Positions 2,990-63,248 of a stretch of 64,000 bases of DNA are shown here, piece after piece (the stretch's first letter is position 1; every line of letters starts with the position of its first letter). The stretch spans positions 706,523,799-706,587,798 of the forward strand of contig NC_058130.1 of assembly GCF_016433145.1 (NCBI RefSeq), read 5' to 3'. The notes beneath the pieces were generated by a model, which was given only the letters and a program-made list of their open reading frames with translations, made no database searches and was not told the DNA's origin. The translations under genes and the position numbers were made by a program. The DNA is from Gracilinanus agilis. Taxonomy: Eukaryota.

Positions 2990-3860
2990 GTATAGAATAC
3001 AGAGACCTCCAGTCCTCCTCTCAGCGTAGAGCAGCCCCAGTGTGCCGAGAACGGAACTTCCGGTCTTCTCTGGTTCCACCCCGCCCTCTGAAGCCGAGAG
3101 GCGGAGTTTTAGGGTGGCCGAACGGGCGTGGCCCCGACGTCCTGGAGTCTGACCCGCCCATTTTACACATGGGGAATACTGAGTCCAAGCGAGGCTCAGG
3201 CGCTGGTCCCACGTCACCCCGCGAGCCCCGGGTGGTGTGTGCGTTGGGTCCCCGAACCTGACCTTCGGGCTCCGTGCGTCAGGAACGTCCCAGGCGCAGC
3301 AAGCGAAGGAGCAACCGAGGCATCGAGCGCGCGCTGGGCTATGGCGGCCTTCGGGGTTCGGGTGGAGCCGCCTCCCCTATCTCAGCCTCTGCAGCCTCCG
3401 CCACCGCCTCCTCCCCAACCTCTGCAGCCGTCTCTCCAGCCTGTACAGCCGCAGCCGTGGGCGGCGTCGGGCCCCCGCTTCCGCTGGTACCGCTACCAGG
3501 AGGCGGCCGGGCCGCGGCAGGCGCTGAGGAGGCTCCGGGAGCTGTGTCGCCAGTGGCTGCGGCCCGAGCGGCACAGCAAGGAGCAGATCCTGGAGCTGTT
3601 GGTGCTCGAGCAGTTCCTCACCATCCTGCCGGCCGACGTACAGGCCTGGGTGCGGGGCCGCAGCCCGCGCTCCGGAGACGAGGCGGCCGCGGGCGTAGAG
3701 CTGCTGCTGCGGCTGCGGCTGCAGCAGGAGCAGGGGGCCGAGCCGCAGGTCAGCGCCCCGACGGGACGGGCTGAGGGAAGGGGGAGGGGCGGCGCGGGGA
3801 GCAGGGAGGGAGGTGAAAATGTCTGCACGCCCCCGCCCCCAGCGGGGGACCCCCTTCTTG
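2990..3860 (+). promoter_or_regulatory. CpG island / promoter of the SCAN-ZF gene
   Basis: Dense CpG in an otherwise CpG-poor window. ETS/GABP-type ACTTCCGGT at 3056-3064 and GC boxes (CCGCCC). The island spans the SCAN exon. Confidence 0.85.
3341..3748 (+). CDS. SCAN-zinc-finger gene (ZSCAN family), coding exon 1: P/Q-rich N-terminus plus SCAN domain
   Basis: ATG in strong Kozak context (GCTATGG). SCAN motif [47 protein letters not shown]. 136 codons ending CAG|GTCAGC (phase 0). Confidence 0.92.
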
Positions 3861-5724
3861 TCACCACCACGACTGCCTCCTTGTTGGGACCCTTTACAGT
3901 AATTCCAAGAGCCAGCACTAATGTCTTTTATTATATTATACACTTGGTATATGCCCTATCTTACATAACATCATTATATATGTCATATCTTAAACATTAT
4001 GTCACATCTATCATCATACGATATGACCTCATTATATCAGTTCTATTCTATCATATGACATTATACATTCTATCATATAGCGGACCTTACACTATGAGGA
4101 AGCTTGGATAGTGGATAGAATGATGGACTGGAGTTCAAATCCAGCCTACAGATACTTGCTAGCTAGTCACTTAACCTCTATCTGCCTCATTTTCTTCAGA
4201 TGTCAGAAAAGAGTAGCACTTACCTCTCAGGATTATTGTAAGAATAAAAGGAGGCTAAAATATGTCAGGTGCCTAGTACATACATTTTATGGGCGCAGAA
4301 ACTGAGGCAGTCAGGGACTTGTATGGGATTACCCAGTTAATAAGTGTCTGAGACAGGATTTGAACTCTGCTCTTCTCATTACCCCTGACCACCTCCCAGC
4401 CACCCTATGTGACTATGGATAGAGAGCTGGCCTTGAGTCAAGCCCAGTTCTGTCCCATCTCCTACTGTGCAGCCTTGGGCAAGTCAGTTAAAATGCTTCC
4501 TGGGGAGCCTCTAAGCCTACAAATTGTAGAAAAGGTGTCAGTCCCTATTGGTGGAGCTTCCCCACTTTGATGAAATCTTCTTAAGAAAACAAACAATACA
4601 CTACCATAAATGCTTTAGAGAAGTATAAACTAGACACTATGAGATCTGTGTGAAAAGCTCATTCCTAACTGGGGAGGATCCCGGAAGGCTTCATTGAGAA
4701 ACTTGAAGGTCGGGTTGGATTTGGAAGGGAGGGAGCATTCCAAGCTGGGCTGGCCTGCCTGAGAAAAAGTATGGAATGGAGAATCAATCTTAAAGCATTT
4801 ATTAAGGGCCTACCATGTGCAAAGAAACAAAATGTTACAATCCTTGCCCTGGAGTCTGTGATAGGGACAAGAGATAAACAAAGTCTGACCATGTTTATAG
4901 GAATCTGTAGTTAACCAGGAGAGAGCTGGAGGCTGAAGATTAGAGGAAGGGGAGAATAATTGTGCTTACTGGGAGGGAACAGAATCAAGGAGATCATCAA
5001 GGGGTTGGTCTTGGCAAAAGAAGAGCAGATGTGTTTTGGAGACCAGAGAGTAGTCTTGTTTGCCAGAAATGGAGGATTCATGGAACAGTGGGTGATGATG
5101 GAAAGAGCACTGGGCGTACAGTGGAGGTAACCAAATGCTGGCTCTGCTACTCACTAATTATGTGATTTTGAGTGAGTTTTCAACTAGATGACTTCTTAGG
5201 TTTCTTCCAGTGTCGATCATCTATGACCATGACCAACTCTGTGAAGCTAAGGTTTGGTGTCAGCCATATTGTAGAGATCTTTAAATGCCAGGGAGTTTTG
5301 AAGGGTCCTGTAAATGGACTCTGGTTTTAACAGTAGGTTCTCACTATGTGGGTCTACCCATTTGTATCCATATGAGAACAGGTGCTGTTTCAATCAGAAC
5401 AAATCACCACAGAAATTGGAGCCCTGCATTTAGTTCAGCAGATGTTTTCCCATTCCTAAGACAGATCTCTTTCGCCTGTGGACAGGTGCACAGGCTGCTC
5501 ATTTGAGCTGGAGTTTTCCTGGGTGGGGGTGGGTAAACTGGCTGCCCTTTCCCCACTTAGCTATAGTCTCCAAACCACTGCCTTTCAGGATTCAAAAATC
5601 CTTAAAACAGACTTTTCTCTTTGAGTTCTGGGCATACTGCTAATTGTTCTTCTGCATTTCTCCAACTGAAACAATCTCAAGAACTGACCATTTCTCCTTT
5701 TTTTTCCTCCAAGCAAAGTAGATC

Positions 5725-6479: not shown

Positions 6480-7560
6480 CTCTGATGCTTCATGTCCATT
6501 TTTGAGTATGGGTCACAGTTTCCATAGTGTGCATGTTTTCTTAAAACACATCTTGTATGCACCTTAAAAATCTGTTCTGGATTTTGCCTGGAGGACTTAT
6601 AATCTGCAAACTAAACCAAGAAGAAACTGAATCCCTAAGGGAAAAATCCAAAAGGCAATCCAAATATCTCTTTAAAGAATTTGAGAAGTAGAACAACTTT
6701 TGCCTTTGGAAATAACATGTACATAATTCTGGAATGGTACTTGACAACAGAGAAGATACAAGAAATTTTTGACACTGCTATCAAACATGGCAGGGCCAGA
6801 TGATTTAAGTTCTATCTAGACTCTGTGACTTGAATCCCTTTACCACCACAGGTAGAAGTGGAAACTACTAGGGCAGTGATGGGCAAATTATGGCCCCCTG
6901 AAATGTTCTTTTCAGCTGGTGACATTATTCCTAATCTGACGAATACAATGAGTAGGATACAAGTACAATGAAACTTTGAAAGAGTTGCCTTAGAAACAGA
7001 CTGACAGATGAGCATTTCCTTTCCTTTGGCCCCCTCTTTAAAAAGTTTGCCCATCACTGTACTAGGGGATTTGGAAGGGACCATCACCAAATAGATTGAG
7101 AACAATCCATCTATCTAGATCTTAAACTCAGTAGATGTTAGTAGTAAGTGTCAAGAGAATGTATGTCAGACATATTTTAATAAAATCTCAGCCCTATGCC
7201 TATCATTTTCATTGTTTTAATTACATAGATGTTTTACACTTTTCCAGTATCTTACCATAGTAATCAATATTGCCATGCAGATATACAAGTAGATACTTGA
7301 AAATTTTAAAGGTCCATTTCATCAGCATTCTCAGGGCCAAGTGAAAATGTTGGAGCCTAAAATTTGAGTGCTGGCCTTGAAGCTGTCATACTTACACAAA
7401 TCTACTTGAACTTGGGTACATCAAAGTTAGTGTTTTCCCTTTGAATCATCTGCTAGAGGCTTTAAAATTCTTTGGAGGTCATCTGTATACTGATTTCAAA
7501 CAAGGCTTGTAACACCAGCAAGACAAGAAAAAATTTTTTAATGTCATCACAAGGTCTGCC
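6480..7560 (-). mobile_element. Possible highly decayed hAT (Charlie/GTF2IRD2-like) transposase remnant, interrupted by a MITE
   Basis: Minus-strand fragments (KFKxICVSMT, RHRAEILLK, HLLL, RQKLFYFSNSLKRYL, KIQNRF) appear in the order expected for hAT transposase segments. Many stops and frameshifts; weak similarity. Confidence 0.35.
6874..7059. mobile_element. hAT non-autonomous element (MITE) with perfect 8-bp TSD
   Basis: TIRs CAGTGATGGGCAAA / TTTGCCCATCACTG. TSD TACTAGGG at 6866-6873 and 7060-7067. The interior keeps a KSCLRNRLTDEH-like piece of the hAT dimerisation domain. Confidence 0.93.
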
Positions 7561-13040: not shown

Positions 13041-13750
13041 TCCTGAAGGTTTTTTAGTAGAGAATGGACTTGGTCTTGCTTTTAGATTACTAGTACATCA
13101 TTGTGGAGTAGGTGCTGATAAGAAGAAGCGAAGACTTGAACTGTTGAGAACAGGGGGTATAAGGGTTAGATTGGAGGGTTGTTATAGGATTTGATGATGA
13201 GAAGTGTTAAGGGCCCAAATTAAGGTGGTTTCTGTGAGCAAAGGGAAGAGGATTAATTTGAGTATTTGTATGGAGGTAGCCTAAACCAGATTAGTAATAG
13301 GCATTTAAATGTAGCTGATTGGATCTGGAAGTTTCTATAAGAAAGAAGAGTCAAATGATTTCTGGTGCTTATGAGCCTAGGATATTGGAGGAATAATAGT
13401 ACTATTAAAAGAAATAGAGTTTTGAGGAAGAGTCAGGTTTTTGAGGTAAAATAATGAGTTTGGATTGGAACGTTATTATATTTGAGTTGCTGTCAGAACA
13501 TAATGACAGAAATATTAAATAGGAGATTCTAGAGAACCACCTACATTTAGGAGGTAGGTATAAGAGTAGACAGTAAGAAACAAAGAAGTAGACAATGGGA
13601 GAAGAATTATGATAGTGTGTCTTAAAAGTCAGAGGAGGAGAAATATCAGCTAGCAGGAGGTGGTCCATAATGCCATATGCCAAAGAGAGGCTAAAGAAGG
13701 TGAAGGCTGAAAAGAAGTCACTGCATTTCATAACAGGGTGACCTTGATAA

Positions 13751-14404
13751 TGTAAGAGGGAGATTTTAGGTATTTATAGATATATATTTAAAGTGTGGTC
13801 GCCAGGAATCAACAATTCAGATTGATTCCATAATTAAAATAGACCCAAGTCAGGATCAGGTTTAAGGTAGTTTATTTATAATTAGGAAGGTAAAAGATAG
13901 AGAAATAGAGGGAGAGGCCTGGACTGAGAGAGAGGGTTAAAAGTCTAATTAAACTAGGCTGCAAACCACAAGACCTTAGAAATCAGAGAGGCTATAAGCC
14001 TACTTAAGGCAGAGTTTGGAAACGCCAAGGTAGGCCAAGGAAGTCAGCCTAACTTACCCACGTGACAATTCAGAGTAGAAGCATTCTGAGGTCTCAGCCG
14101 AGATCCTTCAGCACCAAGTCCAAAGCTGGAACTCCTTCACCAGCTTGTAACCCACATATTTATAGAGATAGCATCTCTTGTCATTTCCTGTGGGCCCACC
14201 TCTAATTCAAGTGGACCAATGGCAGCCTCTATACTGGTTTGGACTGCCCAAAGGGCAGTCCCTTGTTCTCATTTGATACTTATTGTCACGTGTGATTAAC
14301 TCATCTCCCCTCCACACTAAGGGAGGTGGGGATGATATAATCTAGATGCCTAGGGTAAGTAGAGTTTTGACTATGAATGGGCTTGAGCTAATTCCATTTA
14401 CACA
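13751..14404 (-). mobile_element. ERV1-type 3' LTR, full length, preceded on its own strand by a polypurine tract
   Basis: Minus strand reads TGTGTAAATGG...CTTACA. PPT AGGGGGGGAT at 14405-14414. Internal ERV sequence continues to ~14578. Confidence 0.92.
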
Positions 14405-14642
14405 ATCCCCCCCTGATAATCATATTGGGTGCCTAGTCACCCAAAGTGATCATTTTACATAATCATCTTATACCCACAAAGGTCTTCTAACTACAATAGT
14501 TAGAGGTAAGAGGGGAATGGAAGAGAGAGAAAGCAAAACCAATGTTTACTAAGCATATTGACAAGAAACCAAATTGGGACTGCCCCCAATTGGTTTCTTG
14601 TCAATGCACTTAGCAAAACATTGATTTTGCTTTCTCTTCCAT

Positions 14643-15256
14643 TAGATTATATCATCCCCACCTCCCTTAGTGTGGAGGGGAGATGAGTTAATCACACGTG
14701 ACAATAAGTATCAAATGAGAACAAGGGACTGCCCTTTGGGCAGTCCAAACCAGTATAGAGGCTGCCATTGGTCCACTTGAATTAGAGGTGGGCCCACAGG
14801 AAATGACAAGAGATGCTATCTCTATAAATATGTGGGTTACAAGCTGGTGAAGGAGTTCCAGCTTTGGACTTGGTGCTGAAGGATCTCGGCTGAGACCTCA
14901 GAATGCTTCTACTCTGAATTGTCACGTGGGTAAGTTAGGCTGACTTCCTTGGCCTACCTTGGCGTTTCCAAACTCTGCCTTAAGTAGGCTTATAGCCTCT
15001 CTGATTTCTAAGGTCTTGTGGTTTGCAGCCTAGTTTAATTAGACTTTTAACCCTCTCTCTCAGTCCAGGCCTCTCCAGGCCTGGACTAGCCTCTCCCTCT
15101 CTCTATTTCTCTATCTTTTACCTTCCTAATTGTAAATAAACTACCTTAAACCCGATCCTGACTTGGGTCTATTTTATGGAATCAATCTGAATTGTTGATT
15201 CCTGGCGACCACATTTTAAATATATATCTATAAATACCTAAAATCTCCCTCTTACA
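14643..15256 (+). mobile_element. ERV1-type LTR lacking its first ~60 bp; mirror image of 13751-14344
   Basis: TATAAATA 14823-14830, GTAAGT donor 14930-14935, AATAAA 15135-15140, ends CTTACA. Reverse complement of the left LTR. Confidence 0.93.
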
Positions 15257-16749
15257 ATAATCAGTGTTTCAGAGAAGTAGTGGGACAGAAAACAGATTGA
15301 AGGAAGCTAAGCACCAAGTATATTATGAAGGAATAGATCCAGAAAGTTTCATAGTAGAAATGTAAAAGCGAAGATGATAACTTGAAGAATGGCATAATCA
15401 AGAAAAAGTTTTTATAGGATAGGGTAAACTAGAATATATTGTAAGTTAAAGGCTAGGAAGCTGGAGAGAGATAGGATAAAATGCAAACACTTTAGTGAAT
15501 AGAATTTAAGGTCTTCCTTAAGGTCTAGCTTTAACCTGCCTTTGTAGCTTGGTTTCACATTATTCCCTTTCATCAGTCAATCAGTTAATAAACATTTATT
15601 ATGCTAAATGCCAGGGATACAAAAAGAGGCAAAAAACAATCCCTGCTCTCAAGGAGCTTATATATAATTTACTAAGGGAGACAATATACAAATAAATATA
15701 TACAAGGCAAGCACCTATATACAAGATTAAATGGGAAATAATTAATAGAAGGAAGGCACTAGGATTAAGAGAGGTTGGGGGAAGACTTCCTGTAGAAGGT
15801 GGGATTTTAATTGGGACTTATAGGAAACCAGGGAGGTCAGTGGTTGGAATAAAGGAGGGAGAATGTTTCAGGCATGGGGGACATAGAGAATGCTGGGAGT
15901 CAAGAGATGAACTGTCTTATTTGTGGAATAAGCCACAAATAACAGGTCAGTGTCCACTTATTTGAAGAGTACATGTTGGGGAGTGAGGTGTAAAAAAACT
16001 GTGAAGGTAGCAGCAGGCCAGTTTATAAAGGGCTTTGAATGCCAAATAGAGCATTTTATATCTGCTTCTGGAGCCAATAAGAAGCCACTGAAGTTTATTG
16101 AATGGGGATGGGGTGACATGGTTGGACCTGTGTTTTAGGAAAATCACTTTAGCAGCTGAATAGAGGAAGGAATGGAGTAGGGAGAGATTTGAGGCAGACA
16201 GACCCTGTGTTGAGGGCCTGCCCTAGAGTGGTTACAGTGTCAGAGTAAAGAAAGGGCTCTATTTAAGAAATGTTGCAAAAGTGAAATCTAAATGCGTTGA
16301 CAAGAGATTGGGTTTTGGTGGGGTGGGGAAGTAAGGGGTAGTGATAGATAACGAGGAATCCAGGATGACTTTCATGTACTTTTTGTTCCAACTGGCGTTC
16401 TCCAGCTATGTGTTTGAGCAGACAGGCTCCTATCTCTGAGATATACTTTTTCCTCAACTAAGGCTAAACTCAGTTGCCACCTTCTCTATTAAACTTTTCC
16501 CAGTTCCTATAGTGAAAAGTGTTCTCTGCCTCCTTAAGTTTCCTTGACCATGTTGTTCAGATCTCTCTTATGCTCCCTTCAAATCCAACCTTGTATATAC
16601 CCCAAAGTAGAATCTAAGCTCCTTGAGGCTAGCAATTGTCATTTGTTATCTCTTTTCCCCATTATCTTACATTTAATTGGGACTTAGTAAATGTTTATTG
16701 ATACCTTTTTATTGAATTAACATTGAAAAAAATAAAATGTTTATTGAAA

Positions 16750-18060: not shown

Positions 18061-19077
<1,017 letters not shown>

Positions 19078-22963: not shown

Positions 22964-25899
22964 ACCCTTTATTTTTTGGACTTCAAGTAAGAAGTCTTAT
23001 GTTCTAGTCTAGGTTCTGAGATTAAGTCCCTTCATGTTTTCTGGGCTTCAACTTCTCCCTCTATAAAATGAGTATTCAATTGGATCTCTTTTTATTTTTG
23101 GCCTTTGATCCCAGTTCATTTTGAGGGGGAAATTGTTCCCTTCATTAAGCCTTTTCTCTTCAGACTCCTGATTCTCTTTGCCATTGCCTGAAAACATGCC
23201 TGGGTTTCCCCCATCCTTAAATATCCTTCACTTGATTTGTGGATGTATTCAGGCAGAAAAATCTAACATGATTGCATTCACCAGAGAGATGTCTGATTTC
23301 TGTAAGAAATCCTTTCTCCATTTTCCATGTAGATAGAAGCTTTCTGTGCACATGCCAATGCCTTAGGGAAATGTTAAGTTGCTATAATGCCAAATAATAA
23401 TGTTGGGGGTTTTTGTGTTTTATTCTCTGTAGAAGGCAAATTTGATCTCACAATTAAACTATATAAAGCTCATTAGACGTTGTTGACATAGGAGATGTGG
23501 GCATGTTTATGTCTCCATTGGTTGAGATAACTTACTGTTACAAACATAATTTTACTGTGAAAAAGACATTTAATTTTATGACTGGTCATTATAGGAAGGG
23601 GAAGTGATTTTTGTGGAGTGGGAAATGTTTTAAATAATGTCAATTCAGTAACTTTTATTACATTAAAATGTTGACAAAAGAAAAAAATCTTCATCTCATG
23701 CTATGAACTGTATTCTCCCTTTTATAGTCAGATTCATCCAAAAGGGTTATCTACACTTTCTGCCTCCATTTCCTCACCTCCTATTCATGTGTCAACTCCT
23801 TGCTTTCTGGCTTCCTACTCAATCACCTAACTATAATTGCCCTTTCCAAGGTTACTAACAATCTCCCTCCTCTAGTCCAATGACCTTTTCCCAGTCCTCA
23901 TTCAGTTTTGCCCCTCTGCAGCTTTGACACTTTGGAACACTCATTCTTGGATACCATCCTTCCTTGATTCCTCTTACTTTGTTCCCTCATTTGGTCTTTC
24001 TACCTGCCTGATATCTCTTCAGGATCCTTTGCAGCTGGATCATCATCCTCCCACTAAATGTGTACACCTCCTAAGGCAGTGTTGTCGAAGATTTAAAAGT
24101 TTGTGTGCCCAAACTGTGACATCAAGCTGCCTGTGCCCCCCGCCCAATTATCCCAGAGAACAGAGGGAGGAAGCACTCACTTTGGGCAGCCGGTCAGAGG
24201 GGTGGGACATGTAAAAAATGTCCTCTGGTGCTGGGAAGAGGGGGAATGGAGCAGCTACCCCTTGCCAGCTGGGCACATGTGCCAATACTTCATTCTAGTG
24301 GGCTCTTACATTTATACTTATGACATCAGCTCCCATGGTTTCAGCCATAACTTCTAAGGAGATGACACTAAAATCTCATCTTTAATCTCCCTTAAATCTT
24401 CACCTGCTGCCTTTCCTCTTCCAATATCCTATAACTATTTTAAATTAAACATGTTCAAAACAGAACTCATATTTTCCCCAAAAACCTTCCCTCCAAATTT
24501 CACAAGGATAAAGTCATCTACATCTCATCCTTTTCTCACCTTCTAGACTCAACCAGTTGTTAAGCTTTGTCAATTCTGCCTCTTTTTCATTCCATTCCTT
24601 CTTTCATTTCAGGCAGCTTTTTACTTTTCAGGCTCTTGTTACTTCTCTTCTAGACTATTAAAATAGCCTTCCAATTAGAATCTCCAATTTCTCCCCACTC
24701 AACTCCATCTTTTACACAGCTGTCCAGTGGATAATCCTAAAACACAAGTCCAGCCATCCTACTCCCATTCTTAAATTTCAGAATTTACTGTTACTACACA
24801 GATAAGATACCTTCTGACCCTGACATCCAGTATTTGCTCCTTTCCATCTATTTTACTCGAGGCAAACTAGTCTTTTACCTACAAACGCTATTCCCATTTC
24901 CTATTGTGACCCTTGTTTAGGTATTTCCTGCATGTCCTTAGAATCACCCAACTCCCTTAGAGCACAATTCAAGTGCCAATTTTTTGCATAAGATTTCTGA
25001 CTATTATTTTTAAGTTGCCTTTCTGTAGAAATTCTTTTGTAGTATGTATATTGTTTGTTAAATTGAGTTGAATGGCCTAGGTATTTTTTAGCTTTAGCCA
25101 GTAGACCCCAGGTTCCTGTTGATAGCCCACTCTGGTCAGATCTCACATACCCAAACTTGCCCCATTCTGTATTTTCCCTGTACCAGTCAGAGAATCATTT
25201 TCCTAGCTCTAATGAAGCTTCCAAGCACTCAATCTATTCTCTCATTAAACTTGTACAGCCACAGACTAGTTCTCTGTCCAAACTCCTTCCTTTACCACCC
25301 TCAAGGAAGTTTTCTAGTTCCAAGATGACCAACCACAATTCTCCAGTTCATGGGGAATATAGCTCCTCCTTTTTTTAGATCTTCCACAAAGTTCTGCTTT
25401 GGTGACTTGAGGGAGAGAGAGAGCTGTCACTAGACTGCAGTGGCACATGAGGAGAAGTATAGAAAATCTGAAGCATTTACTGGACTTAGATTTTACTTAG
25501 CTTCTCCCTATGGTTTCTTGTATTGATAGAATGTAAGTCTGTGGAGCAGGGAGTGTTTTGTATTTGTATCCCTAGCCAGTCAACTTGCATTTGTTAATCA
25601 TCTACTATGTGCCTAGCACAAAGCGCTTAATAAGATACTTGTTGATTAATACTGCTTTTCTTCTGAGGACTTGTGTTGCTGAGTAGAAGCCCAATCCTTT
25701 CTGTAGCCTAGAGGATTATACTTCTTTGTCAGATCTGTTCTTCAAGGTGATTTGAAATCAGAAGATAGGTCCATAGTTCCTTTCTTAAACTTGGATATAA
25801 AGCCCCACTCTCTTGAGGGGAAAAATAAAATATTCTCCCCCTTTCATGTTCTGTTCCTTATGTTGAGCACTCAAAACTTCTCTGATAACACTGGATTCA

Positions 25900-37741: not shown

Positions 37742-37875
37742 NNNNNNNNNNNNNNNNNNNNNNNNNNNNNNNNNNNNNNNNNNNNNNNNNNNNNNNNNNN
37801 NNNNNNNNNNNNNNNNNNNNNNNNNNNNNNNNNNNNNNNNNNNNNNNNNNNNNNNNNNNNNNNNNNNNNNNNNNN
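37742..37875. other. Assembly gap (134 N)
   Basis: Run of N in intron 1 of the KRAB-ZF gene. Confidence 0.99.
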
Positions 37876-46382: not shown

Positions 46383-46586
46383 CAGTGATGGGCAAAGTAC
46401 AGCCCACGAGCCAGATGCAGCCCCCTGAAATGTTCTATACAGCCCCGAGACATGATTCCTAATCTGACAAATACAATGAGTAGGATACAATACAATGAAA
46501 CTTCAGAAGAGTTGCCTTAGAAACAGACTGACAGATGAACATTTCCTTTCCTTTGGCCCCCTCTTTAAAAAGTTTGCCCATCATTG
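46383..46586. mobile_element. hAT MITE, same family as 6874-7059, perfect 8-bp TSD
   Basis: TIRs CAGTGATGGGCAAA / TTTGCCCATCATTG. TSD GTCTAGGA at 46375-46382 and 46587-46594. Confidence 0.93.
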
Positions 46587-47122
46587 GTCTAGGATATAAG
46601 CCTAGTAATGGAAACTGGATTTAAGGTTATAGCATTTTAGTCACTTTATTTGCATGATTCCAAGTTGTTTTCCAAAATGTTTGTACTGGTTCATAGCTTT
46701 ACAATGATGCACTAGTAATGCAACTCTCTCTTAATGCTTGTTTTTTTATACCTTTAGCTCATTTCCTCTTCATTCTTTTTGTCCATGGTTCCCTAATTCT
46801 CAGTTCACCTCTCTAATGTTGCTATTCGTTGTTTGTTAATCTTTCAATTCTTCTGTTTCTCTCCTCACACTTTCCCTTTTCTTCCTTGGGCTCTTCTTGT
46901 TTTCTGGGCTCCCCCAACTTTGATGTCTATTATCATTTTCTTCATTTTCCTCCTCCTTTTCATCCTTTACTGAGACTGTGAGGCTGGCATTTAAAATCTT
47001 TTAAAACTATGTCCCCTAAGAGATATTTGTTTTATTAGGTTTGTCTTGTTCATCCCAGCAATTTCCTTGTTGCCAGGATAAAGAGCAGGTAATATATATG
47101 TGTTTTAAATTCCTTATTACAG

Positions 47123-48651
47123 ATTGTGTGGCCAGGCCTGAGAATAAGACGTTGTCTGAAAAGCAGAAAATTCCTGAAGCAATGAAATTACAATCAGCAA
47201 CTTTGGAAAGATTTACAGGGCATCTTCCCCAGAAATCCAAATGTAAAGAAGCTTGTGAACCTAAAGACAAGTCAAAGGAATATCTAACAGAGGGACTGAG
47301 AAAACTTCTTTCACAGAAAAAGGGTTTCAAGCCAATGACAATGATCCATCAGAAATCTCCCACAAGGGAGAGAAGTCAGGAATGTAATGAATTTGGGAAA
47401 AGCTTCAGAAAGGAATCAAACCCTATTGGGCATCAGAGAATTCCTTCTGGAAGGAAAATTCAGTCATGTGACAAAATGAGCCAAAGCTTCAAGCAGAATT
47501 CAGACCAAATGAAAGTCCAAGTGGAAAAGAAATTTTGTAAACCTAATGTATATCAGAAAGGTTTTAGGCAAAGTTCCACCCAATCTGGACATCATCAAAT
47601 TAATTATGGAGAGAAATCCTATGAGTGTAATGAATGTGGAAAAACCTTCCGTCAAAGCTCAGCCCTTAATCTTCATCACAGAATTCATACTGGTGAGAAA
47701 CCCTATGAGTGCAATGAATGTGGGCAAACGTTTAGCCAGCTTTCTAACCTTAGTACACATCAGAGAATTCACACTGGAGAGAAACCCTATGAGTGTACAG
47801 AATGTGGAAAAGCCTTCCGCCAACATTCAGTTTTTATTCGGCATCAGAGAATTCACACTGGTGAGAAACCCTATGAGTGTAATGAATGTGGAAAAGCCTT
47901 TACTACCTGCTCATCCCTTATTCTGCATTATAGAATCCATACTGGAGAGAAACCCTATGAATGTAATGAATGTGGCAAAGCTTTCAGTCAGAGCTCATCT
48001 CTTATCCTGCATCATAGAATTCATACTGGGGAGAAACCTTTTAAATGTAATGAATGCGGACAGACCTTTAGCCAATTGTCAACCCTTATTAAACATGAGA
48101 GAACACATAATGGAGAGAAACCCTATTTATGTAATGAATGTGGAAAATCTTTCCGTCAGGACTCTCAACTTCTGTTTCATCAGAGAACTCACAATGGTGA
48201 GAAACCCTTTCAGTGTAATGTATGTGGGAAAGATTTCAGTGCTCGTGCATCCCTTATTCAGCACCAGAGAATTCATACTGGAGAAAAGCCCTATGAGTGC
48301 AGTGAATGTGAGAAAGCCTTCCGTAGACGCTCAGAATTTATCCGGCATCAGAGGGTACATACTGGGGAAAAACCATATGTGTGTAATCAGTGTGAAAAAT
48401 CCTTCAGTGTACACTCTTGCTTTATCAGACACCAGAGAATTCACACTGGTGAGAAACCTTATAAATGTAATCAATGTGGGAAAGCCTTCCGTCAGAGCTC
48501 TCATCTTCTTACACATCAGAGAATTCATACTGGAGAGAAACCTTATGAGTGTAAAGAATGTAGGAAATCTTTTTGTCACAGAATATCCCTCATTCAACAT
48601 CAGAGAGTTCACATTGGAGAAAGACCCTGTGAAAAAATTATCACTTCATGA
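47123..48651 (+). CDS. KRAB-ZF gene terminal exon: spacer, ~3 degenerate fingers, 12 intact C2H2 fingers
   Basis: Acceptor TCCTTATTACAG|AT (phase 1), open to TGA at 48651. The spliced CDS from 38324 is 1797 nt (598 aa). Confidence 0.96.
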
Positions 48652-53443: not shown

Positions 53444-53945
53444 GCCTCCCTCCAGCTGTTTCACTTCAAATTTTAATTAGATTCATTTTGTTGGTACAAA
53501 ATCATTTTAGTTTTATTTGATCATCTTTATCCCTTGTTTTGAACTTCTGTCCATGTAAGTGGAAGGTAAGTTCTTCCTTTATTTTCCAATATGTTTGTGA
53601 TACTTCCATTTATATCTAAGTCATGAAGCTATTTGGATATTATCTTGGTTTGTGAGGTGAGATATACATCTCTACCTAAGTTCTGTTAGACTGCTTTCCA
53701 GTTTTCCTATCAGTTTTTGTTAAATAAATGAGTCCTTCTCTGTGGGGTCATTGAATTTATTGAACACCATTCTGCTACAGTCATTTGCTTTTATATGTGT
53801 GCTTTACTCATAAAGCACAGCACCTTTTTTGGTGTGGGCATACCATGCTAGACAGTCCTGTGCCGGTATCTCCTATGTCTCACAATGATGCCAAAATTCT
53901 TTAGAACTTTGTCCAGATAGATAGATTCCAAATATTCTATAGTTC

Positions 53946-54549
53946 AAATTGATTCCGTAATTAAAATAGACCCAAGTCAGGATCGGGTTTAAGGTAGTTT
54001 ATTTACAGTTATGAAGGTAAAAGGTAGGGAAATAAAGAGAGGGAAAGGCCAGTCCAGGCCTCCAGAGGCCTGGATGGAGAGAGAAGGTTAAAAGGCTAAT
54101 TAAATTAAATACACGCCACAAGGCCTTAGCAATCAGAGAAGCAAGAAGTCTACTTAAGGTAGAGTTTAGTAAAATGCCAAGGTAGGCCAAGGAAGTCAGC
54201 CTAACTTACCCACGTGACAATTCAGAGTGGAAGCAGTCTGAGGTCTCAGCCAAGAACCTTCAGCACCAAGTTCAAAGCAGGAACTGCCTCAACAGGAAGT
54301 CACCAACATACTTGAAAAGATAGTGCCTCACGTCACTTCCTGTGGGTCCACCTCTAATTCAAGTGGACAAATGGCAGCCTCTACACTGATTTGGACTGCC
54401 CAAAGGGCAGTCCCTTGTTCTTGATTTGTTACTTATTGTCACATGAGGGTAACTCATCTCCCCTCCCCACTAAGGGAGGTGGGGATGATATAATCTCGGG
54501 TAAGTAGAGTTTAGACTATGATTGAGCTAGAGCTAATTCCATTTACACA
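53946..54549 (-). mobile_element. ERV1-type LTR of the same family as 13751-15256, U5 end missing
   Basis: Collinear with the other copies; the minus strand starts TGTGTAAATGGAATTAG. Confidence 0.9.
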
Positions 54550-56221
54550 ATTGTATAGTTATTTCTAATGGAATGTCTCTTTCTATCTTTTCCTACTTGG
54601 GGTAGGAGAAGGTAGGGAGTTAATATTCAGAAATTCTGGTGATTTACATGGATTTATATCCTTCAATTTTGCTAAAGTTATTGTTTTAATTAATTTTTAG
54701 TTGACTCAGGATACCTAATATGATCTACACAAAGCAATTATTTCCATTTTGCCTATGTTTATTCCTTTAATTTCATTTTCTTGTATTATTGCTATAATTA
54801 GCATTTCTAGACAAATTTTTGGTTTAATAGTATGTAATAATGAACATATTTGCTCTGTTGATCTAAATGGAAAGACCTCTTGTATATCTCTATTACCTAT
54901 GATGCTGGCTCTTTAGAGAGATTATTCTTGCCATCTTAAGGAAAAGTCTCATTCCTCTGCTTCCTTGTGTGTGTATGTGTGTACATGTGCATGTGTGTGT
55001 ATGTGTTTTAGTAGGTAGGGGTGTTGAATTTTGTCTGACTTTTTTTCAGCATCTATTGATATTTTGTGGTTTTTACAATTTTTTGTTACTAATGTGGGCT
55101 GTTATGTTTATAGTTTTCCTTATCCTGAAGCCACCTTGCTGTCCTAGTATAAATTCAACCTGGTTATAATGTATAATCTTTTTAATGTTGCTTAATATAG
55201 TGACCTCTTACTAACATTTTATTTAACATTTTGCAACAATATTCATTAGGGATAATTGATCTATAGTTTATGTTTCTCCCTGGCATACAAGACCATTTTT
55301 GTATCATAGAAAGAGTTTGGAAGGATCCCTTTGCTACTTCTTGCAGTTTATGTAATATAGGACTTAATTGTTCTTTGAATGATTGAAAGAATTCATTTGA
55401 AAATCCATATGATTATGGGATTTTTTCCCTTTGGGTGTTCATTAAGGACTTGTTAAATTTCTTTTTCTTATATATTTAAACTATTGATTTGCTTCCAAAA
55501 TGCTATCCTGGCTCTTTCTCTTGCTGTGGCCTAAAAGTAGCTGTCTGGGTGTTATGCTCCCTCTTCCTAATACACTGACTTATAGAGCCTTGGGTGGGGC
55601 TTCCTGGGTATGGTGCTTTGGGCTGGTTTGCCTCAGTTTTAGGATGACTGAGCCTAGGTGTGGTACCTCTTTCTGAGCACTACACTGCTTATAGTTTAGG
55701 CTGGGCTGCCCTCAGTGCTGCCTAAGTGCTGTTCTGGTCCTGTCTGTCTACTCTACTATTTATGCTGTTTGTACACTGCCTTCCTGGCTTGTTTCCTGGT
55801 TTGTCTCTGTTCAGAACTTCCTCAGGTTTTTAGTAGGCTTCTGCAGTTCTGGACTGAATGGAGAAGCTCATTTCTATTTCTCTTTGATTTTATCGTATTC
55901 CACAGGTGCATTTTTAGAGCTTTTCTGGGTTGTAGGTGAGATATTTAGGTACTTCCAGGTTCCCACTGTAAAAGGGAATTCTTTGTTCTCTTTGAGTTCA
56001 CACTTGTGAAAGGGAATCCCTTATTCTTTTTGCCTAGTTGGAGCTAATACTTTAGTTAACCTAACTTAAGTACAAACTTGAACTAGGTGGAGGAGCTAGC
56101 AAACTACTTGGTGAATTCACACCCTACTTAGTGCTAGGTGTGAAGCCAGCAAGATACTTGGAAAGCTCCACCTTTTTTTCTAACTATTCACCCCTCCAGA
56201 AGGTGTGAACTGGTTCCCACA

Positions 56222-60871: not shown

Positions 60872-61615
<744 letters not shown>

Positions 61616-62578
61616 CCATTGTCAGAGCCTCCAGACTCCTGGCCTGGTTTCTATGCTTTGTGCTACCTAACTGCCCCAATTATGTAAAGAGAGGCCTAAA
61701 GACAGTAGATGCGCCTCCAAGACAAAGAGACTATACTTACACTTTTGCCAGAGCTTTCCTCTACTTAAGAATCCCAAAGGAGTTTGAGGAGTGAAAGTGA
61801 TTGAAGTTAAACTAATTACCCCTAAGGCAATACTGAACAGCATCTAGAGGGAAGTGGTGTTTTTGTCTGGAGAAAGAATAGGCTAGGCAGGAGATAACAA
61901 AGAACCTCAGAGCTGTGGTCTTGAATCAGTCAAAGGAAACAAGTTTTTGCCAATCTTAAAGGTCATTTTCCTAGCTGAAAAAAAAAATTAGCACTCCATT
62001 TGAAAAGGGTGTGGCAACGCTTCAACTCTCTATGACTACCTATTGATGAATAAGCTCAGTAGATCAGATACCAACCTGAACAGCACCATTGAATAGTCCC
62101 TGCCCAGTGATCAAGTGGTCTTCTGTGACCATTTGCTTCTTATGAGAAACCAGTATGACCACTAAGTGATATATTGCCCATCCAGCCTAGACCCCTTGTC
62201 CTAGGGGGAGAAAGCCCAGGTAAGCCACTACAGGAAGTTAGGTAGAGACACAGACGTATTCAACCAAGAGCCAGTTGAAGGGCATGTTGAGGACCTTCCA
62301 GAAAAATCAATGATATCAACCTTACAGTTCCAGAATTGTGAGTTATGTTGGTCTTATTTTTAGATGTGCTGATGTTATTGTATAAGTTGTTCCCCTTGTT
62401 CTACTCACTTTATTCTACAGCAGTCCACACAAATCTCTTCATTTTCATTCCATTCATGTTCCATAATTAGTTCAGCTATCACTGAATTGACAGATAGTCA
62501 TTTAGTTTCCAGTTCTTTTCCCTTCATGGTACTCCAGAGGTACCCTGCCTCCATGGACTATAATAGGAGGTTAGGCTC

Positions 62579-63248
62579 TGTGTAATTAGAATTGCTCTAG
62601 CCCATTCATAGTCAAACTCTACTTGCCCTAGACTTAGAAATGATGTCATCTTCACCTCCCTTAGTGGGAGGGGGATGAGTTACCCACACGTGACAATAAG
62701 TAACAAATCAAGAACGAGGGACTATCCTTTGGGCAGTCCAAATCAGTGTAGAGGCTGCCATTTGTCCACTTGAATTAGAGGTGGACCCACAGGAAGTGAC
62801 CAAAGACACTTTTTCTTCAAGTATGTTGTTGACTTCCTGTTGAGGGAGTTCAAGCTTTGAACTTGGTGCTGAAAGATCTCCTATCCTCAGGCAGCTTCTA
62901 CTCTGAATTGTCACATGGGTAAGTTAGGCTGACTTCCTTGACCTACCTAGGCTGCTTCCAAACTCTGCCTTAAGCAGGCACTAGCCTATCTGGTTGCTAG
63001 GCCTTGAGGCTTGTAGCCTGATTTATTTAGCCTTTTAACCTTCTCTCTCCGTCCAGGCCTCTGCAGGCCTGGACCAGCCTCTCCCTCTCTTTATTTCCTT
63101 ACCTTTACCTTCCTAATTGTAAATAAACTACCTTAAACCCAGTCCTGACTTGGGTCTAATTTAATTACGGAATCAATCTAAATTGTTGATTCCTGAAGGC
63201 CACACTTTAAATATATATCTATAAGATACCCTAAATCTCCCTCTTACA
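62579..63248 (+). mobile_element. Solo ERV1-type LTR of the same family, with 4-bp TSD
   Basis: TGTGTAATTAG...CTTACA flanked by GCTC on both sides. Confidence 0.94.

Follow-up and report, generated by a model that had tools for sequence, protein, structure and literature searches.

Several kinds of abnormal LTR retrotransposon insertion have been described, and they differ in what was inserted and by which route. The complex insertions produced by template switching (Sabot and Schulman, 2007, PMC1950507) have, in the passages of that paper used here, three LTRs, two cores and normal outer ends. The Ty1 composite elements of yeast (Friedl et al., 2010, PMC2939329) consist of foreign DNA joined to Ty1 pieces, formed through faulty priming and switches of strand during reverse transcription and then integrated; two U5 ends do not figure in the passages of that report on which we draw. 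In the portions of PMC8742673 available to us, purified HIV-1 integrase given designed donors in vitro prefers U5/U5 pairs and inserts them with a normal target-site duplication (TSD). Elements of the DIRS type have inverted terminal LTR-like repeats and a tyrosine recombinase (PMC7192593, in excerpt). Finally, gammaretrovirus-like (ERV1) proviruses and solo LTRs have TG...CA termini, a polypurine tract (PPT), a stem-loop early in R (PMC2664473, in part) and a 4-bp duplication, the last found in 13 of 15 XMRV proviruses according to the sections seen of PMC2857682.

Here we describe an ERV-derived element in a 64-kb window (the whole stretch of Gracilinanus agilis DNA that was analysed, 64,000 nucleotides) in which two LTRs of one family face outward, so that both host junctions are U5 ends. 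The TG...CA termini, PPT, 4-bp duplication and early-R stem-loop are those of an ERV1 provirus or solo LTR, whereas the inverted LTRs and the lack of any primer-binding site (PBS), of genes and of a U3 host junction are not. As in the complexes of Sabot and Schulman, there is a single TSD and the outer LTRs are highly similar (3 substitutions in 590 columns), and the element would likewise be an abnormal product of reverse transcription from two RNAs that was inserted once; unlike the complexes, as far as the available text of that paper describes them, it has two inverted LTRs with two U5 ends, no third internal LTR and no coding core. With the HIV-1 reaction it shares a U5 pair inserted with a normal duplication, here as a natural germ-line insertion rather than with purified enzyme, and with the Ty1 composites it would share the route of erroneous priming and strand switching followed by integration. 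The likeness to DIRS elements lies in the inverted repeats, whereas LTRs of this family also occur in the usual solo form, flanked by a TSD. To our knowledge, DIRS elements make no TSD; given the TSD and the absence of a long reading frame (hence of a tyrosine recombinase gene), this identity was rejected. A literature search of titles and abstract openings, with partial coverage, found no natural two-U5 ERV. The features of the element and of the related LTR copies in the window are as follows.

13747..13750, plus strand: left copy of the TSD, ATAA, read from the sequence
13751..14404, minus strand: complete LTR of 654 nt, TG...CA, with its U5 end at the host junction
14405..14414, minus strand: PPT with G7, immediately before the left LTR
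14415..14515, minus strand: 3′ internal (UTR-like) DNA, in the left arm only, with small stem-loops (z -3.7, 14408-14518)
14516..14643, minus strand: imperfect hairpin with a 6-nt loop (14579-14584) between its arms, 14516-14578 and 14585-14643
14642..14643, plus strand: inner junction from the hairpin base to LTR base 61, with 1-nt microhomology
14643..15256, plus strand: LTR without its first 60 bases, with its U5 (CA) end at the host junction
15034..15041, 15062..15087 and 15135..15140, plus strand: putative U3/R landmarks, namely an AT-rich box, an 11-bp stem-loop and AATAAA
15257..15260, plus strand: right copy of the TSD, ATAA
53943..54551, minus strand: third LTR copy, U5 end missing, ~11% diverged
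62579..63248, plus strand: solo LTR of the same family, ~12% diverged, flanked by GCTC/GCTC, the reference for termini and TSD length

The two ATAA copies enclose 1506 nt. The left arm comprises a whole LTR, the PPT and 3′ internal DNA, and since the PPT directly precedes the LTR, the left LTR is a 3′ LTR. The right arm begins at LTR base 61 and has no PPT; of the two 3′ LTRs described in an earlier note, the left one alone is demonstrated to be such. Its claim that both host junctions are U5 ends stands: the LTRs point outward and each ends in CA at host DNA. The PPT and the 6-nt loop also lie where it had placed them. However, the element is not the clean 1.5-kb palindrome that had been described. 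The arms are unequal, and 171 nt (14345-14515, comprising the PPT, neighbouring 3′ UTR and first 60 LTR bases) have no partner in the right arm, which implies a second junction at 14642/3; the internal DNA is mirrored over only ~59 nt around the loop. We consider the observation of two U5 ends probably real. The orientation of the LTRs is inverted, not direct, the U3 host junction of a canonical provirus is missing, and both U5 ends pass straight into host DNA with no PBS. We found neither coding sequence nor a long reading frame within the element, and with both LTRs facing outward and no primer site it is incapable of copying itself. This was the one inverted-LTR structure in the window, whereas a MITE or fold-back transposon family would have the same inverted structure at more than one site, and, as far as shown, it is a single dead copy. 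The left arm was also considered as a simply inverted 5′ LTR, and this was rejected because the PPT, not a PBS, follows the LTR.

Comparison of the two host junctions at duplication lengths of 2 to 8 gave a match at 4 only, in agreement with the shared 4-bp ATAA reported earlier, and the same comparison at the solo LTR again gave a match (GCTC/GCTC) at length 4 alone. The probability of a random 4-bp match at two fixed flank positions is 0.006-0.007, or 0.0125 for the AT-rich ATAA, which makes up 1.25% of local 4-mers. Exact CA ends together with a duplication of the length made by this family, which is 4 bp at this element as at the solo LTR, suggest insertion by integrase.

The flanks had also been read as one continuous L2-like sequence. 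One frame does run across the join: when the flanks are rejoined with one ATAA, the minus strand encodes an in-frame peptide that we take to resemble an L2/CR1 reverse-transcriptase motif. The search tools did not confirm this part of the claim. A Pfam search of the flanks found no family in any of the six frames, phmmer with the flank peptides returned a single match, to an unrelated repetitive protein and not to an L2 relative, a further protein search for L2 relatives retained none of 67 candidates, and atlas matches to the flank peptides reached at most 0.83, none of them named. A test of 17 registers was flat (171-193), with a score of 178 for the one-ATAA join, and thus does not favour a single ATAA. 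A second L2-like segment, on the minus strand at 23563-24125, is heavily decayed and weakly, not significantly, similar to the flanks. This segment (near 23.6-24.1 kb) aligns without gaps at the join with a score of 200 versus 192 for the best of 10 shuffles; against longer flanks it scores 263, under the shuffle mean of 288.

The two LTR arms are identical over 434 nt (14643-15076 and 13911-14344). They differ by the 3 substitutions (0.5%) and by two indels, a 24-nt deletion in the left arm and a 4-nt deletion in the right arm, all in the outer 180 nt and between 15077 and 15214. By comparison, the other LTR copies in the window are 11-13% away from the element. Each arm holds states absent from these other copies, so that a simple copying of one arm from the other does not account for them. 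The 24-nt deletion takes out one arm of the early-R stem-loop, which is kept in three of the four LTR copies in the window and lost from the left arm. The order of AT-rich box, stem-loop and AATAAA is that of the gammaretrovirus-like LTR layout in the passages seen of PMC2664473, which would place the start of R at about 15060. With this U3/R boundary, set from motifs after the clustering of differences had been noticed, all five differences fall in the putative R-U5 (195 of 614 nt, p about 0.003) and 0 of 419 nt differ in the putative U3. Two other processes would leave the same pattern. None of the differences is more than 180 nt away from unique flanks, as would be the case if the inner arms had been homogenised during assembly, and the identical tract ends at the 24-nt indel, as it would if gene conversion had stopped there. 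The third LTR copy, at 53943-54551, breaks off ~65 nt short of the U5 end and is followed by unrelated sequence.

The arms of the central hairpin differ by 5 substitutions in 55 aligned columns and 3 internal indels, significantly more than the whole LTR arms (3/590; Fisher p=0.0002) and more than the outer part of the arms (p=0.03), so that the hairpin probably predates the insertion, judging from sequence divergence. It folds with z about -13 on either strand, and is more stable in the RNA sense (-72.6 vs -64.6 kcal/mol), where four of the five substitutions form G-U pairs, an excess short of significance (p=0.19). The adjacent unmirrored UTR is likewise structured. A search of Rfam with the hairpin gave 19 matches, none at the gathering score and all of them generic hairpins. 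The window holds no other copy of the internal DNA, and pattern scans for the element found 0 loci in metagenome contigs and 0 in viral contigs. One 10-nt word has four occurrences in the window (14576-14585, 14725-14734, 14253-14262 and 54405-54414), which lie at the hairpin loop and, in the LTR copies, within a short U3 palindrome.

U5 ends derive from tRNA-primed strong-stop DNA. We suggest, with slightly more than even confidence, that the element arose when integrase inserted, in a single event, a defective product of reverse transcription that had a U5 end on each side. A tRNA-primed minus strand would have copied U5, R, U3, PPT and then 3′ UTR before it stalled at the long RNA hairpin's base. 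On the plus strand, 13751-14642 is ordered as such a nascent minus strand ending at the hairpin base would be, and the inner junction falls at this base. The 3′ end of the minus strand would then have reached base 61 of U3 by snapping back or by a jump with 1-nt microhomology. The gap of 171 nt could have formed at this step, or else through a deletion that stabilised the structure later, of the kind described for mouse palindromes (PMC8701086, in the sections available). The other strand would have begun at another strong-stop DNA, also primed by tRNA and templated by the second packaged RNA; this would provide a second and slightly different R-U5 while U3 was copied from a single source. Integrase would have taken the U5/U5 pair and made the usual 4-bp duplication of the family. 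Integrase insertion of a cDNA with two U5 ends, proposed in the earlier note, is thus still the best explanation. The simple fold-back at the 6-nt loop that went with it fits poorly, as 171 nt are skipped, divergence is greater between the arms of the hairpin than between those of the LTRs, and R-U5 differs while U3 is identical.

An unlikely alternative is an ordinary minus-strand provirus that was rearranged after integration, losing its 5′ part and regaining an inverted LTR, with later gene conversion. Repair could have copied the 3′ LTR in inverted form, or the 5′ LTR could have been inverted, with rejoining at the terminus. The left arm is indeed a normal proviral 3′ end, the few terminal bases common to the two LTR ends could have served as microhomology, and close inverted repeats in mammals rearrange and gain asymmetric deletions (PMC8701086, in part); the end of the identical tract at the 24-nt indel would suit conversion. 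However, repair would have had to switch exactly at the CA end on ~3 nt of homology and leave the duplication intact, and a second event is required for differences confined to R-U5.

It is also improbable that the structure is an assembly artefact or haplotype mosaic and that the true locus has a single LTR, a normal provirus or another interior. The reads came from one sequencing run, which may be the source sample and holds 0.63 of 269 words of the stretch. The comparison covered 14345-15950, with 8 pieces and 15 joints listed; beyond these there were 80 joints, 651 loose ends and 10,921 pieces. A 414-nt contig (15231-15644) matches without differences and runs unbroken over the right junction at a depth of 26.2, similar to the flank bins (26-40). 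It carries 26 LTR letters, fewer than the 31 of the bridging rule, and they belong to the U5 end; with an end of the U3 type, 9 of the 26 would agree. No piece among the 8 listed crosses the inner junction or the loop. Opposite-strand joints at 14345-14355/14642-14649 were set aside as evidence for the inner junction, as they reflect ordinary LTR continuity. Over the LTR and 3′ internal DNA, the depths add up to between hundreds and tens of thousands of times the flank value, a ratio that is not a copy number, and the sum drops about five-fold at the hairpin centre; by depth, one arm and two arms are indistinguishable. The perfect identity of 434 nt in a very high-copy family, the single run with its partial coverage of words, the recovery of one of three junctions, and the joints and loose ends beyond those listed are all compatible with an artefact. 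On the other hand, the right junction lies within a contig at flank-level depth, none of the 15 listed joints links 14404 to 15257, R-U5 differs between the arms, unlike in a read fold-back, and a chimera would need to land exactly at the LTR terminus. The window also contains an assembly gap of 134 N (37742-37875), and the assembly is thus scaffolded, which is relevant to the trust placed in its repeats.

Alternatively, two separate cDNAs could each have given one U5 end to one intasome, with the inner ends trimmed and joined by host end-joining, a possibility we regard as improbable. U5/U5 products arise in this way in vitro (PMC8742673, in the parts available), and two different R-U5 regions, unequal arms and a 1-nt junction would all be accounted for. 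However, different templates should also differ in U3, where the arms are identical, and a break at the hairpin base would be a coincidence. Two independent insertions with a deletion between them and a chance match of ATAA, an AT-rich word, are very improbable, since such a match has a ~1% chance, the arms are far closer to each other than to other copies in the window and the flanks share a frame over the join (that of the putative L2/CR1 motif), even though neither Pfam nor the register test supports flank continuity.

Two further origins were rejected. An L1-mobilised copy has a poly(A) tail, a longer TSD and an end at the polyadenylation site, and twin priming could invert part of it; here there is no tail, both ends are at the U5 terminus and the TSD is 4 bp. 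An autointegration circle was discarded because its ends would be consumed.

The element sits between the first two reading frames, SCAN-type and C2H2, of what we take to be a plus-strand zinc-finger gene cluster (3113-4108, 18061-19074, 39852, 47020-48648 and 61168-61791). The cluster presumably consists of a frame resembling SCAN, others that encode 7 and 12 C2H2 fingers, an exon similar to KRAB-A and an array of fingers in decay. Elsewhere in the window, 52995-53444 matches itself in inverted orientation over ~450 nt at 73% identity, apparently two facing SINE copies, and a 175-nt direct duplication (6893-7066 and 46420-46593) has 91% identity at a distance of 39.5 kb. The SINEs of the window look marsupial in type.

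U5/U5 integration in vitro and composite insertions made by reverse transcription are both known, which makes the element a variation on a known accident. If real, it would document, in a natural germ-line insertion, that integrase can take up two U5 ends, which we have otherwise seen reported for in vitro work only. An identical U3 beside different R-U5 regions would give a signature, open to testing, of two strong-stop DNAs having acted in the same reverse transcription. Such elements would escape LTR finders that require direct repeats and may therefore have gone uncounted. From its position the element is probably inside an intron, where a transcript reading through it could form a duplex of ~600 bp. 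Rather unlikely, in our view, is the broader proposal that the ~60-bp 3′ UTR RNA hairpin is native to the ERV family and repeatedly derails reverse transcription, giving rise to recurring U5-U5 fold-back insertions. In that case the two R-U5 ends of each insertion would preserve a trace of both co-packaged RNAs. Such a class would be a mammalian germ-line demonstration that integrase needs no U3 end, and would offer a way for LTR elements to become inverted-repeat elements, which give long double-stranded RNA in host introns.
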